This document shows positions 3,017-62,710 of a stretch of 64,000 nt of DNA, piece by piece. The stretch is from assembly GCF_963921235.1 (NCBI RefSeq), contig NC_086097.1, forward strand, positions 175,958,001 to 176,022,000, in the 5' to 3' direction. This DNA comes from Mobula hypostoma. Its lineage: Eukaryota. The notes below the pieces were generated by a model. That model had not been told where the DNA came from. It saw only the letters and a program-made list of their open reading frames with translations, and did not search any database. Position numbers and translations under genes: made by a program. Positions within the stretch are counted from its first letter, which is position 1. Every line of letters starts with the position of its first letter.

Positions 3017-3225
3017 TCTTTACTACTTACGTTCTCAATATTATTTTTTATATTTGCAGTCTGTCTTCTTATACACATTGGTAAGTTTTTGTTTATATAT
3101 AGTTTTTTTTGGTAAACTCTATTGTATTTCTTTATTTTTCCTGTAAATGTCTGCAAGAAAATGAATCACTAGGACTCACACATTTGGTCCAGACCAATAA
3201 ATACCTGGACTCTTTCATCTCTCAC

Positions 3226-3419
3226 CTTTGTCTTTAACAGGATATTGACCGCCCATATTTCTCCACTGTTGACATCAGTCATCCACACTGTAAACTTGCG
3301 TGTTGAATCAATATTTTCAGCCCGAGTGGCAGTTACGGATCCATCTAGATGAACTTCAAAGCTGCCGTCACTGGTGTTTAGCCTGATGTTTCTCTCCAAA
3401 CTGCAGTCATGAAGTGGTA
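3226..3419 (-). CDS. Desmocollin-like exon 3 (cadherin prodomain): VPLHDCSLERNIRLNTSDGSFEVHLDGSV...EIWAVNILLKTK
   Basis: gtccag| acceptor, AAG|gtgaga donor, 194 nt, phase 1 to 0; SDxxFxVxxDGSV motif; ends ...TK like DSC exon 3. Confidence 0.88.
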
Positions 3420-3818: not shown

Positions 3819-3912
3819 ACACACATCAAAGTTGCTGGTGAACGCAGCAGGCTAGGCAGCATCTATAGGAAGAGGCGCAGTCGATGTTTCAGGCCGAGAC
3901 CCTTCGTCAGGA
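3819..3912 (-). mobile_element. Short Penelope-derived element with hammerhead ribozyme, copy 1
   Basis: Direct repeat CTCCAAGCA at 3810-3818 and 3913-3921; near-identical to the copies at 10735 and 55267. Confidence 0.85.
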
Positions 3913-6058: not shown

Positions 6059-6161
6059 CTGTCAGAATCACTTGTCCCTTGTTAACCTGTGGCGTGACTA
6101 ATGCTTCAACATCACTTCCGAGAAAACCGCTTTGGCAACACTGTCCACCTCCATAGCATGT
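6059..6161 (-). CDS. Desmocollin-like exon 2 (cadherin prodomain): TCYGGGQCCQSGFLGSDVEALVTPQVNKGQVILT
   Basis: ttacag| acceptor, G|gtgagt donor, 103 nt, phase 0 to 1; CxxGF...GQV prodomain pattern; not in ORF track. Confidence 0.87.
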
Positions 6162-6168
6162 CTGTAAT

Positions 6169-7047
6169 AGAAACATAGAAACTTAGAAAACCTGCAGCAC
6201 AATACAGGCCCTTCGGCCCACAGAGCTGTGCCAAACATGTCCTTACCTTAGAAATTACCTAGGGTTACCCATAGCCCTCTATTTTTCTGAGCTCCATATA
6301 CCTGTCCAGGAATCTCTTGAAAGACGCTACTGTATCCGCCTCCACCACCATTGCCCGCAGCCCATTCCATGCACTCACCACTCCCTGTGTAAAAAAAACT
6401 TACCCCTGATATCTCTTCTGTACTTACTTCCAAGCACCTTAAAACTGTGCCCTCTCATGCTAGCCATTTCAGCCCTGGGAAAAAGCCTCTGACTATCCAC
6501 ACGATCAATGCCTCTCATCATCTTACACACCTCTATCAGGTCTCCTCTCATCCTCCGTCACTCCAAGGAGAAAAGGCTGAGTTCACTCAACCTATTCTCA
6601 TAAGGCATGCTCCCCAATCCAAGCAACATCCTTGTAAATCTCCTCTGCACCCTTTCTATGGTTTCCACATCCTTCATATTGTGAGGTGACCAGAACTGAG
6701 CACAGTACTCCAAGTGGAGTCTGACCAGGGTCCTATATAGCTGCAACATTACCTCTTGGCTCTTAAACTCAATCCCACAATTGATGAAGGACAATGCACC
6801 GTATGCCTCCTTAACCACAGAGTCAACCTGCACAGCAGATTCGAGTGTCCTATGTACTCGGACCCCAAGATCCCTCTGATCCTCCATACTGCCAAGAGTC
6901 TTACCATTAATACTATATTCTGTCATCATATTTGACCTACCAAAATGAACCACCCCACACTTATCTGGGTTGAACTCCACCTACCATTTCTCAGCCCAGT
7001 TCTGCATTCTATCAATGTCCCACTGTAACCTCTGACACTATCCACAC
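6169..7047 (-). mobile_element. Young 5'-truncated CR1 LINE inserted at the exon-2 acceptor
   Basis: ORF 6558-6980 MEFNPDKC..VHFGRSN...HLEYCAQFWSP; TTTCTA(A/T)G tail; TAAT at 6165-6168 and 7048-7051. Confidence 0.9.
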
Positions 7048-7069
7048 TAATGAGAGAAGACGTAAAGGA

Positions 7070-7266
7070 GACTGCAGATGCTGGAAATCTGGAGCAACAC
7101 ACAAATTCCTGGAGGAACTCAGTGGGCCAGGCAGCATCTGTGGAGGGAAATGGACAATCAATGCTTCTGGTTGAGGCCCTTTATTTAAAAAAAATATTGA
7201 CTGTCCATTTCCCTCTAAAGATGCTGCCTGACCTGTTGAGTTCCTTCAGCATCTTGTGTGTTGCTC
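7070..7266. mobile_element. Inverted pair of Penelope terminal-repeat fragments (hairpin, arms about 70 bp)
   Basis: 7092-7162 is the approximate reverse complement of 7197-7266. Confidence 0.8.
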
Positions 7267-8236: not shown

Positions 8237-10734
8237 AAAAAAAATAGGCAAGGCATGGAACTATACGATCCTAATGCAGGAAATGAGACTACTGTAGATA
8301 GCCAAAAAGATTGGCATGGATGTGATGGCCAGAAGGGCCTCTTTCTGTGCTGTTCATCTCCACGACTATTTGCCCTCACCCTTAGAATATGTTCAGTACT
8401 GATTCTAATAAAACAAATCTTTCTTTTAATTTGGAAGATCAGAACTGTACACAGTAGATGGGTGTGGCATCTCCAGGGCTGATAACACACTCGTAAAAGT
8501 TGTCTGGGCTTGTGTTCAAAGGCTTGGACTACAGATCCATTATACAAATTCTGCCCAACCAACTGGGGGATATTCAGAAGGCTGGTTTGAGACTGACCTC
8601 CATTACTATCTGGCACATTCTCCACACCATCTTCTCATTACCACCATTAGGGAGGTGGTGCAGGAGCCTGAAGACTCATACTCGATGATTCAGGAACAGC
8701 TTTTTCCCCTCCACCACCAAATTTCTGAATGGCCCATGAACACTGCTTTGCTATTCCTCTTTTGCACTATTTATCTGTAATTAAAACTTACAATTTTATT
8801 TTTATATCTTGCACAGTACTGCTGCCACAAAACGACACATCTCACAACACGTCAGTGATAATAAACAGGATTCCAATTCACAGTACGGGTTTCTTCTTGG
8901 TGCTCTGGTTTCCTCCCACATACCAAAGACTTGCTGATTGGTAGCTAAACTGGCTAATGCAGTTGGGTGCCAGGAGGGAGTTGACAGGCATTAGAAGATC
9001 CAGAAAGTCGTACAACATAGAAATAGGCCCATCTGCCCAAGATGCATATACAAGATAGTCTCATCTGTCAGGATTTGGCCCAGATCTCCCCAAATCTTTC
9101 CTGTCCATGTACTTGTCCAAGTGCCTTTCAAATATTATTAATGTACTTGTCTCAAGCACTTCCTCAGGTAACTCCATACACTCACCAGCCGCTGTGTGAA
9201 GAAGATGCCCCTCAGGTCTATTTTAAATCTTTCTGCGATACCAATTTAAACAGCACATCTGCCTGCACATGGTCTATATCATTCCATTCCTTGTCCGTCT
9301 GTGTGTCTGAGTAAATGCCATTTAAATGTTGCCATCATATATGTTTCTTACACCTCCCCTAGAAGGGTGTTCCAGACACCTACCACTCTGTATTTCTATG
9401 TGAGTCTCTTCTGAAGTTTCCACTGTCAACTTATAGCTCTGCCCTGTCCAATGTTCTTAAAATATTGTTATTGTACCCACCTCAAATACTTCCTTTGATT
9501 GCTTGAAGTTGCCCCTTCAGGTCCCTTTTAAATCATTCCCCTCTCAGCTCAAACTTTGCCCTCTTAAGCTTGATTCCCTACCCTTGGGGAAAAAAAAGAC
9601 TATGTGCAAGTTGTATCAGTATTGTAGTGGAATAAAGGGAATTACAGAGGCATGAGAGAGGAGCTGGCCAAAATTGATTGGAAAGGAACATCGGCAGGGC
9701 TGACAGCAGAGCAGCAATGGCTAGAATTTCTGGGAGCAATTCAGAAGGTGGAGGATATATACCTCCTCTACCAAATAAAGTGGCCATTGAATGTTTCCAA
9801 GGGCTAACAGCCAAGCAACAGAGGAAAAATGGTTATGAAGGCAGACTTAAAACATTCTTGAAGCAATGCAATTTCCAGATTTTTTTTTAACAATGGTAGT
9901 GCTTGATAATAAAGGATAGAACCATAGAACCATAGAAACTACAGCACAGAAACAGGCCCTTTGGCCCTTCTTGGTTGTGCCGAACCATTTTCTGCCTAGT
10001 CCCACTGACCTGCACACGGACCATATCCCTCCATACACCTCCCATCCATGTATCTGTCCAATTTATTCTTAAATGTTAAAAAAGAACCCGCATTTACCAC
10101 CTCGTCTGGCAGCTCATTCCATACTCCCACCACTCTCTGTGTGAAGAAGCCCCCCCTAATGTTCCCTTTAAACTTTTCCCCCCTAACCCTTAACCCATGT
10201 CCTCTGGTTTTTTTCTCCCCTTGCCTCAGCGGAAAAAGCCTGCTTGCATTCACTCTATCTATACCCATCATAATTTTATATACCTCTATCAAATCTCCCC
10301 TCATTCTTCTATGCTCCAGGGAATAAAGTCCTAACCTATTCAATCTTTCTCTGTAACTGAGTTTCTCAAGTCCCGGCAACATCCTTGTAAACCTTCTCTG
10401 CACTCTTTCAACCTTATTTATATCCTTCCTGTAATTTGGTGACCAAAACTGAACACAATACTCCAGATTCGGCCTCACTAATGCCTTATACAACCTCATC
10501 ATAACATTCCAGCTCTTATACTCAATACTTTGATTAATAAAGGCCAACGTACCAAAAGCTCTCTTTATGACCCTATCTACTTGTGTCGCCACTTTTAGGG
10601 AATTTTGTATCTGTATTCCCAGATCTACTGCACTCCTCAGTGACTTACCATTAACCCTGTATGTTCTACCTTGGTTTGACCTTCCAACGTGCAATACCTC
10701 ACACTTGTCTGTATTAAACTCCATCTGCCATTTT

Positions 10735-10876
10735 CCTTCAGTTAGTCCTGACGAAGGGTCTCGGCCTGAAACGTCGACTGCGCCTCTTCCTATAGATGCT
10801 GCTTGGCCTGCTGCGTTCACCAGCAACTTTGATGTGTGTTGCTTGAATTTCCAGCATCTGCAGAATTCCTGTTGTT
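10735..10876 (+). mobile_element. Short Penelope-derived element with hammerhead ribozyme, copy 2, nested in CR1
   Basis: Target-site duplication TGCCATTTT at 10726-10734 and 10877-10885; the CR1 frame KWQMEFN is restored on removal. Confidence 0.92.
10744..10779 (+). ncRNA. Minimal type I hammerhead ribozyme
   Basis: AGTC-CTGACGA-AGG(GTCTCGG)CCT-GAAA-CG-TC^GACT: intact CUGANGA and GAAA core, stem I AGTC/GACT, stem II AGG/CCT, palindromic ACGT stem III. Confidence 0.85.
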
Positions 10877-12689
10877 TGCCATTTTTCAGCCCATTTTTCC
10901 AGCTGGTCCAAGTCCCTCTGCAGGCTCTGAAAACCTTCCTCACTGTCTACTACACCTCCAATCTTTGTATCATCAGCAAACTTGCTGATCCAATTTACCA
11001 CATTATCATCCAGATCATTAATATAAATGACAAATAACAATGGACCCAGCACTGATCCCTGTGGCATACCACTAGTCACAGGCCTCCACTCAGAGAAGCA
11101 ATTCTCTACCACCGCTCTCTGGCTTCTTCCATCGAGCCAATGTCTAATCCAATTTACCACCTCTCCATGTATACCTAGTGACTGAATTTTCCTAACTAAC
11201 CTCCCATGCGGGACCTTGTTAAAGGCCTTACTGAAGTCCATGCAGACAATATCCACTGCCTTCCCTTCATCCACTTTCCTGGTAACCTCCTCGAAAAACT
11301 CCAACAGATTGGTCAAACATGACCTACCACGCACAAAGCCATGTTGACTCTCCCTAATAAGCCCCTGTCTATCCAAATGCTTGTAGATTCTGTCTCTTAG
11401 TACTCCCTCCAATAACTTACCTACTACTGACGTTAAACTCACCGGCCTATAATTTCCCGGATTACTTTTCGATCCTTTTTTAAACAACGGAACAACATGA
11501 GCCACTCTCCAATCCTCCGGCACTTCACCCGTAGACAGAGACATTTTAAATATTTCTGCCAGGGCCCCCGCAATTTCAGCACTAGTCTCCTTCAAGGTCC
11601 GAGGGAACACTCTGTCAGGTCCCGGGGATTTATCCACTTTAATTTTCCTCAAGACAGCAAGCACCTCCTCCTTTTCAATCTGTACAGTTTCCATGGTCTC
11701 ACTACTTGATTCCCTCAATTCCACAGATTTCATGCCAGCTTCCTTAGTAAATACAGACGCAAAAAACCTATTTAAGATCTCCCCCATTTCCTTTGGTTCC
11801 ACACAAAGTCGACCACTCTGATCTTCAAAGAGGACCAATTTTATCCCTTACAATCCTTTTGCTCTTAATATACTTGTAAAAGCTCTTTGGATTATCCTTC
11901 ACTTTGACTGCCAAGGCAACCTCATGTCTTCTTTTTGCCCTCCTGATTTCTTCCTTAAGTATTTTCTTGCACTTCTTATACTCCTCAAGCACCTGATTTA
12001 CCCCCTGTTTCCTATACATTTCATACAACTCCCTCTTCTTATCAGAGTTGCAATATCCCTTGAGAACCAAGGTTCCTTATTCCTATTCAATTTGCCTTTA
12101 ATCCTGACAGGAACATACGAACTCTGCACTCTCAAAATTTCCCCTTTGAAGGCTTCCCACCTACCAATCACATCTTTGCCAGAGAACAACCTGTCCCAAT
12201 CCACGCTTTTTAGATCCTTTCTCATTTCTTCAAATTTGGCCTTCTTCCAGTTCAGAACCTCAACCCTAGGACCAGATCTATCCTCGTCCATGATCAAATT
12301 GAAACTAATGGTGTTATGATCACTGGAACCAAAGTGCTCCCCTACACAGACTTCTGTCACTTGCCCTAATTCGTTTCCTAACAGGAGATCCAATATTGCA
12401 TCCCTTCACAGACAAACAAATCACTGAAGATGCTCCACAAGAATCACAGATTCACAACACTGAATGGCAAACGGCATTCAATGCAGAAAAGAGTGAGGTC
12501 AAGTTCAATAAAAATATTTAAAAAACACTTGGACAAGCACATGGGTAGGGAAGTGCTAAAGGCATATAAGCCATGTGAGCACCTAGGTTACAGGGATGGG
12601 TTTGTCAGGTTAAGGAGTTTTCTTCCTTGGAGAATGAAGGATGACCCTTTGGAGGAGGATAAAATCATGAGTGTTATAGATAGGGTAGT

Positions 12690-22123: not shown

Positions 22124-22183
22124 CAGTAAAAGTAGTACGCTGATAAGAACCGCTCGTCTCCAGCAGGGTAGCCCGAACATCAT
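22124..22183 (-). CDS. Desmocollin-like gene exon 1, signal peptide MMFGLPCWRRAVLISVLLLL
   Basis: Inside a CpG-rich island; basic then hydrophobic signal-peptide pattern; ends phase 0 at CTG|GCGAGT (GC donor), matching the phase-0 acceptor of exon 2. Confidence 0.78.
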
Positions 22184-22430
22184 CCCAGCACGGTGTTCGC
22201 GTCCACCGCCCGCTACTCTGCGCAAGCACGTACAGCGCAGCCAGGCCTTACCTGCGCGACTGCTCCACCCCATGAGTCAGATGGGCGGAGACGCGAGGTG
22301 CTGAAAGGGGATCGGGGAGAGGCAGGGAGGCGGAGGCGGGCGGGAGAGTGACGTGAGAGGAAGGAGGCTCGAGGAATCGGGAAGATGGAAGAGGAGGAGC
22401 AGAGTGTGGGAGTGCGGGCGGGGAGTGGAA
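22140..22430 (-). promoter_or_regulatory. CpG-rich promoter/5' region of the desmocollin-like gene
   Basis: Local CpG enrichment not explained by a repeat; AP-1 site TGAGTCA 22273-22279; GGGCGG boxes near 22283, 22338 and 22416; TGACGT near 22349. Confidence 0.65.
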
Positions 22431-47076: not shown

Positions 47077-48223
47077 CTGTGAGACAGAAAAGAAAGAAAT
47101 TTTAATTAACAATCTGTAGATATGCTGAAGTATAGAGTCATACAGCATGGAAACAACCCCCTCAGCCTAACCTGTCTGTGTCGACAAAGATACCTACCTG
47201 AACTAGTCCCATATCTCTCCAAATCTTTCACATGTACATATCTAAATGTCTTTTACACTTTGTAATTATACCCTTCCACAGGCAACTCATACCACACACC
47301 CAGCACCCTCTGTGAAAAACTTCCTCTTCAGATACCCTTTAAATCTTTCTCCTCTTATTTTAAACCTACCCCCCACCCCAGTTCTTGATCCCCTAGTCCT
47401 GGTGGAAACAGACCGTGTGCATTTACTCTCATGTCCTTCATCTTATACACTTCCATAAGATCGTATCTCGGTTTTCTACCCTCCAGGGAAAACAGTCCCA
47501 GCCTTCCAGTCTCTCCACATAACTCAAGTCCTCCAGTCCCGGTAACGTCCTTGTGGAACCTTTCTGCAGCCTCCCTCGTTTAATCACATCTTTACTGTGA
47601 TTAAGTTAAGAGGATGTAGAGGGTACAGTATGGTGACCAGAATTACATACAATATTCAGTGTAGTCTCACCAATGTCCTTTATAAGTGTCACAGGATGTC
47701 CCGACTTATGCACTCAACGCCCCTCCTAATGAAGACAACCATGCCATATGCTTGCTTCACCACTTTGTCGATGCACATCACCATGTTTTGGGAAATAGGT
47801 ATGCGGATCCCCTCTTCTACAACATTTCCCAGGGTTCTGTTAGCTACTGTGCAAGTCCTGCTAAACTTCCCAAATTGCATCACTTGCCCGAGTTAAATTG
47901 CATTTACCATTCCTTTGCCCACTTTCTCAGTTGACCTTGAGTTTCCAGTTGACATGGGCATCATGGAGTTAAATCAGCAGAGAAACAGGACCTTTGATTC
48001 ATCATAGCCAAGCTGACCATTATCAATACTGCTTATATTTACCTACCTTCAGTTCTTCTAGGCATTGGCAATTCAATTACTAGTTAAAGGTTCTGATGTT
48101 CTACAGACTAGATACTTTTTAAAATGTCTTGGAAGTACCTGATCCACCACCTCAACCTTCCTAGCAGGAAACCTTGGGAGAGCATCAGTAAATGACACTG
48201 AACATATATCACCAGTCACTCAC

Positions 48224-49301: not shown

Positions 49302-49648
49302 CTGACTCCCTCACTCTCTTTCCCAGTATCCACACTGATGGCTGGGTATCTTCCAAGCTTCTGACCCAAATGGAACTTTTTCTTGTCTTCACCGACAATG
49401 ATTCGTTTCTTAGTCGGCTTGAATGAAAATCCTTCCTTCTGATCCTTCACATTAACTTTTAATTTGATTGGTTTAAGTCCCCCGCTTCCACCAGCCCCGC
49501 CACCTCCGCCAGCCCCACCACCTCCGCCAGCCCCGCCACCTCCGCCAGCCCCGCCACCTCCGCCAGCAAGGACTGAAGCATGGTAAGCTGCTTTGTTGGA
49601 AACCGTCAGGAGCAAGTTTCTGGTTGATGATTCCTCGTAGTCCAGTTC
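49302..49648 (-). CDS. dsg2: Desmoglein exon ~9 (EC3/EC4) with poly-Gly insert
   Basis: ccacag| acceptor, AG|gtaaag donor, 347 nt, phase 0 to 2; ELDYEE...NKAAYH...(AGGGGG)4...KVNVKDQKEG. Confidence 0.94.
49491..49567 (-). repeat. Coding 18-bp tandem repeat, about 4.3 copies (AGGGGG)
   Basis: ccagccccgccacctccg at 49491, 49509 (one mismatch), 49527 and 49545. Confidence 0.95.
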
Positions 49649-62261: not shown

Positions 62262-62710
62262 CCCCATATGACAATACTACAATACTTCTCCCCATGTGAC
62301 AATACCTTCCCATATGACAATATCACAATATCTCCCCCATGTGACAATACTACAATACCTCCCCCATGTGACAATACTGCAATACCTCCCCCATGTGACA
62401 ATACTACAATATCTCCCCCATGTGACAATAATGCAATACCTCCCCCATGTGACAATACTACAATATCTCCCCCATGTGACAATACTACAATACCTCCCCT
62501 ATGTGACAATACTGCAATACCTCCCCCATGTGACAATACTACAATACCTCCCCCATGTGACAATACTACAATATCTCCCCCATGTGACAATACTACAATA
62601 CCTCCCCTATGTGACAATACTACAATACCTCTCCCCATGTGACAATACTGCAATACCTCCCCCCATGTGACAATATTACAATATCTCCCCACACACGTGA
62701 CAATATTAAA
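62262..62710. repeat. 27-bp minisatellite, about 16-17 units (cccccatgtgacaatactacaatacct)
   Basis: Directly visible tandem array; explains the repetitive ORFs at 62240-62713. Confidence 0.96.

Follow-up and report, generated by a model that had tools for sequence, protein, structure and literature searches.

Structure of the desmoglein-2-like gene

We analysed a window of 64,000 nucleotides from the ray Mobula hypostoma, which carries the first exons of a desmoglein-2-like gene on its minus strand. The parts of the gene that concern us here are the following:

22124–22183, minus strand: signal-peptide exon 1 (coding part), followed by a GC donor
6162–6164, minus strand: CAG acceptor of intron 1, a boundary that the protein models P0001–P0005 keep without an indel
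6059–6161, minus strand: exon 2, 103 bases, phase 0 to 1, seen in protein models and in spliced contigs of the runs X6 and X13
3226–3419, minus strand: exon 3, covered edge to edge (3225–3419) by contig pieces of X6, X8 and X13

The evidence for the boundaries comes from five RefSeq protein models (P0001–P0005) of four species, which are gene models and not reads. The translation of exons 1–3 agreed with XP_062916270.1 and XP_062916261.1 of M. hypostoma at 119 of 119 residues, with XP_072113932.1 of M. birostris at 115 of 118, and with the orthologues of the stingrays Hypanus and Hemitrygon at 97 of 118 each, in all cases without gaps. Since the orthologues align gap-free, the exon-2 boundary is old and has not moved. 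The initial annotation had the acceptor at 6161 in use, and this is borne out by the models of four species that span the boundary and, indirectly, by contigs.

Exon 2 encodes the end of the signal peptide and the start of the cadherin prodomain, and its donor matches the consensus at 9 of 9 positions. The exon-2 peptide had no match in Pfam or PDB. P0004, which is identical to the window over 119 residues, carries Cadherin_pro, four Cadherin stretches and CADH_Y-type_LIR. The signal peptide, prodomain, four cadherin repeats and cytoplasmic cadherin motif of a desmoglein-like cadherin are all present, and the name is RefSeq's; a first identification as a desmocollin was dropped for this label.

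Intron 1 is a 16-kb GC-AG intron, in which the non-canonical donor (22124–22116, minus strand) is paired with the LINE-made acceptor of exon 2. In RefSeq gene models, transcripts usually underlie a GC-AG join. For coding exon 1 we rejected a GT donor at 22252, whose phase is wrong. An upstream ATG followed by this strong-looking GT donor (22275–22244, minus strand; exon end 22252) is out of phase with exon 2 and is possibly an alternative first exon or an upstream reading frame.

A CR1-type LINE upstream of exon 2

The sequence directly upstream of the exon-2 acceptor belongs to a retrotransposon:

6169–7047, minus strand: 5'-truncated, decayed CR1-type LINE in sense orientation, with the end of ORF2, then a 3' UTR with a predicted hairpin and the tail
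6167–6189, minus strand: octamer tail, now the pyrimidine tract, with 13 pyrimidines, 11 of them T, among the 16 bases at -20 to -5

The coding part of the LINE runs from just past the reverse transcriptase (RT) catalytic motif to the end of ORF2 and is damaged by stops, a frameshift and a short deletion near the 5' end. The closest protein was an RT-domain protein of M. hypostoma (78% amino-acid identity over 212 residues), followed by three full-length proteins with endonuclease and RT domains (PF14529/PF03372 and PF00078; 64–67% identity); the matches also included bird and lizard LINE proteins at 39–51% identity, none with a clade label. A Pfam search with the ORF2 fragment itself gave no match. 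The 3' structure of CR1, a hairpin followed by an octamer microsatellite, is described in PMC8665684. At the ray locus the octamer microsatellite consists of two whole units (6189–6182 and 6181–6174, minus strand) and one partial unit (6173–6167), and upstream of it a 3' UTR hairpin is predicted, with a stability no better than that of shuffles (z 0.38; 128 of 200 fold as well). We would thus class the element as CR1-type, a clade label that rests on the hairpin and octamer 3' structure and not on RT phylogeny. The 5'-truncated CR1 copies described in PMC8665684 are alike in having a truncated ORF2 with RT similarity, an octamer tail, a short direct repeat and a 3' UTR hairpin, which at the ray locus is a prediction; the ray unit differs from the avian ATTCTRTG in its first base, which makes it more T-rich.

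Pattern scans for further copies of the element found nothing in viral contigs or metagenomes. Three LINE proteins that are 61–71% identical to the ray element (P0008, P0015 and P0019) are filed under Klebsiella, Carnobacterium and Proteus on short contigs, and are probably animal DNA in bacterial records. A different, longer CR1-type copy lies in intron 1 (9924–12400) and has a copy of the inverted-repeat element described below (7072–7266) nested in its RT region (10754–10864).

The insertion site and the displaced signals

The following features mark the two junctions of the LINE:

6165–6168, minus strand: 3' ATTA copy, candidate target-site duplication, whose first two letters overlap the tail repeat
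7048–7051, minus strand: 5' ATTA copy
7047–7049, minus strand: potential decoy TAG acceptor at the 5' junction, formed by ATTA and a G behind the displaced tract
7052–7071, minus strand: displaced pyrimidine tract and yUnA core (A at 7063), the presumed former tract and branch point
7072–7266, no strand assigned: dispersed inverted-repeat element, immediately next to the displaced tract

On the minus strand the AG of the acceptor occupies 6163–6162 and exon 2 begins at 6161, so that seven bases separate the LINE from the exon. The two ATTA copies (6168–6165 and 7051–7048; TAAT on the plus strand) are spaced 883 bases apart and enclose 879 bases of element (7047–6169) in the gene's own, sense orientation. 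The initial annotation had placed the landing of the element about 7 nt before exon 2; its coordinates and the flanking TAAT were reproduced, and its displacement of about 880 bp came out at 883 bases.

The octamer unit would itself be expected to continue with AT, as the 3' ATTA begins. Among random pairs, a 4-base direct repeat at two junctions was found in 0.4% in exact register, in 3.7% with one base of slack and in 9% with two, and the ATTA repeat alone is weak evidence for a target-site duplication. CR1 target duplications are often present and short (13 of 16 in PMC4255032), and absent or under 6 bp in PMC3265382. ATTA on both sides is compatible with such a short (<6 bp) duplication, with a chance level of 0.4–9%.

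Removal of the element in silico, joining 7052 to 6168, gave 13 pyrimidines of 16 at -20 to -5 and a pyrimidine run of 9 bases; the yUnA core of this join lies at -19, and the stretch from -29 to -2 is free of AG. The earlier claim that excision restores a normal acceptor therefore stands as far as appearance goes (pyrimidines, core and AG-free zone). Its ancestral status does not stand in the same way: the displaced tract abuts another repeat, and the sole related DNA run compared carries the insertion.

The inverted-repeat element gave sub-threshold hairpin matches only in Rfam. It belongs to a dispersed hairpin repeat family with further copies near 3840, 10794, 29771, 38603, 51726, 55279, 60246 and 61321, possibly of Penelope-like origin.

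Contigs from sequencing runs

We compared contigs of 4 of the 23 listed runs over 19.2 kb. None of the listed runs is registered as RNA, and the RNA nature of those treated as such was guessed, though their pieces cover exon 3 edge to edge. Because repeats swamp the region, the comparison covers 15 joints (of about 7,017), 24 loose ends (of about 17,500) and 40 differences (of 540); neither the joint 22124–6161 nor a joint to 7047 is among those 15 joints.

In organism A, the X6 contig 17 (1,098 letters, depth 8.73) holds exon 3 at 182–376. The depth at 6119, within exon 2, is the same value of 8.73, which indicates that exon 2 is joined to exon 3; 78 letters of the contig upstream of exon 2 have no placement. 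In organism B, the X13 contig 9 (472 letters, depth 252.7) holds exon 3 at 173–367, and the piece over 6119 ends at 6162 with one letter unaligned, which fits the last two letters of exon 1 and not the intron. X13 has zero depth in the bin with exon 1 and the X8 contig stops short of 6119; neither was counted as evidence. Through one letter and one depth value, these data indirectly place exon 2 in RNA contigs of two organisms, A and B.

The DNA run of organism B, X11, has a single contig over 6119, and its nearer end is 95 letters off, so that it reaches at least 6213, 45 bases into the tail. Since this contig extends into the LINE tail, organism B shares the insertion, and the insertion predates the split from organism B. 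X11 is the only related DNA run compared, and it carries the insertion rather than an empty site. If the nearer end is the upper one, it lies at 6213, exactly 6183 + 30; had the tail been the same as in other copies, the contig would be expected to stop at 6198. With 31-letter words, an end at 6213 would fit a base at 6183 that is private to this copy and common to both organisms. If the nearer end is instead 6025, the shared insertion stays and the pointer to 6183 is lost.

Splice signals in the LINE tail

As the initial annotation had held, everything upstream of attacag is LINE tail: positions -8 to beyond -37 are LINE sequence. The pyrimidine tract, and any branch point in the usual zone of 19–37 bases, is necessarily LINE-derived since the whole zone is LINE. 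The exon-2 acceptor has the pyrimidine tract (about -5 to -20) and the YAG of a major-spliceosome 3' splice site. Its pyrimidine content at -20 to -5 (13 of 16) compares with 10–15 of 16 at nine other acceptors in the window, and its longest pure pyrimidine run of 5 is at the low end of the 5–15 found at those nine.

One candidate for the branch point lies within the tail:

6182–6186, minus strand: CTAAG, candidate branch core (branch A at 6183, position -22); no other yUnA core lies within 60 bases of the acceptor

Base 6183 is the sole base at which tail unit 1 differs from unit 2, and when unit 1 was made equal to unit 2 no yUnA core was left from -45 to -15. Of 69 single substitutions, 7 create a yUnA core and 2 create a CURA core; the actual change in unit 1 is one of the latter two. 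The base after the branch A in CTAAG is a G, not a pyrimidine. One of the nine control acceptors lacks a yUnA core from -45 to -15 altogether, so such a core is dispensable; in two others the only core is at -15 or beyond -43. According to PMC4315302, 90% of human branch points fall 19–37 bases upstream, with a median of 25. Judged by the motif and its position, branching at 6183 has about an even chance, and selection on this base is rather doubtful. Two other AGs lie in the tail: one would lengthen the exon by 30 bases and bring in an in-frame stop, the other would lengthen it by 20 bases and shift the frame. Three features had escaped the earlier reading of the locus: the base change that gives the core at -22, the potential decoy at 7047 and the GC at the donor of intron 1.

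Proposed mechanism and alternatives

We propose that a CR1-type LINE inserted in sense orientation 7 bases upstream of the acceptor, presumably by target-primed reverse transcription. In doing so it would have duplicated ATTA and moved the former tract and branch point 883 bases upstream. The AG stayed in place and is still used, as the protein models and, indirectly, the contigs show. U2AF would read the U-rich octamer tail, in keeping with its pyrimidine counts, and U2 would most likely pair at CTAAG, with 6183 (-22) as the branch A, a core that owes its existence to this one-base difference between tail units 1 and 2. Through exon definition, the short exon 2 (103 bases) and its perfect donor would favour 6161 over the decoy at 7047 and over the two other AGs of the tail, all of which would lead to early stops. 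The insertion may have been tolerated because the T-rich tail substitutes for the native tract. The overall account, that LINE-made upstream signals serve the old exon-2 acceptor, is probably correct. A stronger version appears unlikely to us: a sense LINE tail would have taken the place of everything upstream in a constitutive 3' splice site at a single stroke, a point mutation under selection would then have supplied the branch point, the evicted signals would have turned into a decoy or poison acceptor, and CR1 tails would act generally as portable tracts.

Several other explanations have to be weighed, not all of which exclude the account preferred here. The most serious, which we regard as quite possible though less probable than our own, is that the insertion was tolerated passively: exon 2 is mainly defined through its perfect donor and short length, almost any U-rich sequence serves, branching is spread over weak adenosines (-23, -22 and -15), and the change at 6183 is neutral or a copying error. 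The 9 of 9 donor matches fit this well, as do the control acceptors with no yUnA core or with poorly placed ones, and splicing resists mutations of the branch motif according to PMC4315302. With a copy this decayed (78% identity to the closest protein), some change within a 23-base zone is to be expected, and a yUnA core results from 7 of 69 substitutions. What argues against mere tolerance is that the one visible change in the tail is one of the 2 of 69 that give a CURA core, that -22 is near the median branch distance of 25, that the change seems common to organism B, and that intron 1 has a GC donor, which is intrinsically weak (see also PMC3167603). It is rather improbable, in our judgement, that the reconstructed empty site is not ancestral, with ATTA due to chance or microhomology, the tract at 7071–7052 largely the tail of the inverted repeat, and the host's own tract removed by one or the other insertion. 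The inverted-repeat alignments do extend to 7065–7063, and six of the seven other copies have 9–13 pyrimidines in the next 15 bases, one of them aligning closely with small gaps; yet the displaced tract resembles the repeat tails no more than shuffled sequences do (1075 and 1091 of 3000 score at least as high). ATTGG stands just upstream of the truncation point in two distant CR1 copies of the window, whereas the closest ORF2 protein has KVGG there and not KIGG, so that ATT is not expected. A chance repeat, at up to 9% with two bases of slack, stands against the often present and short duplications of CR1 (PMC4255032 and PMC3265382), and in the joined sequence (7052 to 6168) the branch core at -19 lies within a stretch free of AG.

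Still less probable is that tolerance is partial, which would be compatible with the preferred account. The decoy at 7047 would then open a cryptic exon of 62 or 142 bases or a long extension, and part of the transcripts would decay, lowering or tuning desmoglein; any exon opened there meets a stop at codon 3. The sites 7047 and 6162 are the two top-scoring YAG sites between 7110 and 6100, with 13 of 16 pyrimidines each, and for 7047 a yUnA core is found at -17, while donor-like sites, each with 7 of 9 matches, follow after 62 and 142 bases (6985 and 6905). In mammals, elements near exons give more chimeric transcripts (PMC3088655). On the other hand, the branch-to-AG distance of 17 is below the 19–37 range of 90% of human branch points, the five protein models show the direct join only, and the 15 listed joints (of about 7,017) include none to 7047.

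Relation to known insertions

The account of a LINE-supplied acceptor resembles the canine merle insertion, in which SINEC_Cf lies at the intron 10/exon 11 border of PMEL. Both cases share a retroposon in a 3' splice site, a target duplication, which at the ray locus is a candidate one, a branch point split from the AG and a tail that reads as T-rich. In merle (PMC7349775) the SINE is antisense, its poly(A) tail is read as poly(T), a cryptic acceptor is activated and a mutant phenotype results. At the ray locus, by contrast, a sense LINE brings its own octamer tail, the original AG and the frame are unchanged, and the insertion appears common to two organisms. Exonised inverted Alus (PMC4315302) and the MIR/AluSp exon of BLOC1S2 (PMC6822395) likewise take both tract and branch point from a transposon, with signals that a single mutation can complete; in those cases antisense SINEs give rise to new and mostly alternative exons. 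At the ray locus the AG of an old coding exon that stingrays also have is retained, and only the signals upstream of it are replaced. The protein models hold no element sequence, whereas exonisation of the Alu type would bring transposon sequence into the mature exon. What is new here is thus a sense LINE that probably supplies splice signals to an old exon, while signals donated by transposons, mostly by antisense SINEs making new exons, are known. Among the titles and abstract beginnings covered, with most subscription journals outside this coverage, none described the locus itself or a case in which the tail of a sense CR1 serves an acceptor that was already there.

Transposons are under-represented near exons, and only 10% of the full-length AluY within 20 bp of exons lie at acceptors (PMC3088655). 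The ray LINE, within 20 bases of an acceptor, falls in the most depleted class of that paper, which measures loss in human and mouse and whose passages covered here describe no survivors that supply signals. A surviving case is notable, as acceptor-proximal insertions (<20 bases) are the most depleted class of intronic transposons in mammals. The locus offers a natural before-and-after case, since the old and the new signals can both be read 883 bases apart, and one base gives a sharp prediction. It allows a test of how a constitutive exon copes once its tract and branch point are gone, and of whether sense LINE tails often take over in the repeat-rich genomes of sharks and rays. If this were general, elasmobranch CR1s would carry, in their T-rich octamer tails, pyrimidine tracts that travel with them and allow them to persist inside acceptors, and LINE-made signals would serve in the splicing of many exons of rays and sharks. 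As one locus, it is a good example and not yet a new principle.

Other features of the window

A second desmoglein-like gene lies in tandem upstream (60877–26568, minus strand), with 29–68% identity by exon to P0001–P0005, and holds a Gly-Ala-rich repeat at 49487–49567. A 27-base minisatellite of 14.5 copies occupies 62299–62690. By eye, another CR1-like tail was seen at about 47170–47128 (minus strand), where it ends about 50 bases upstream of the acceptor of this paralogue at 47077, which keeps its own tract intact despite the nearby tail.
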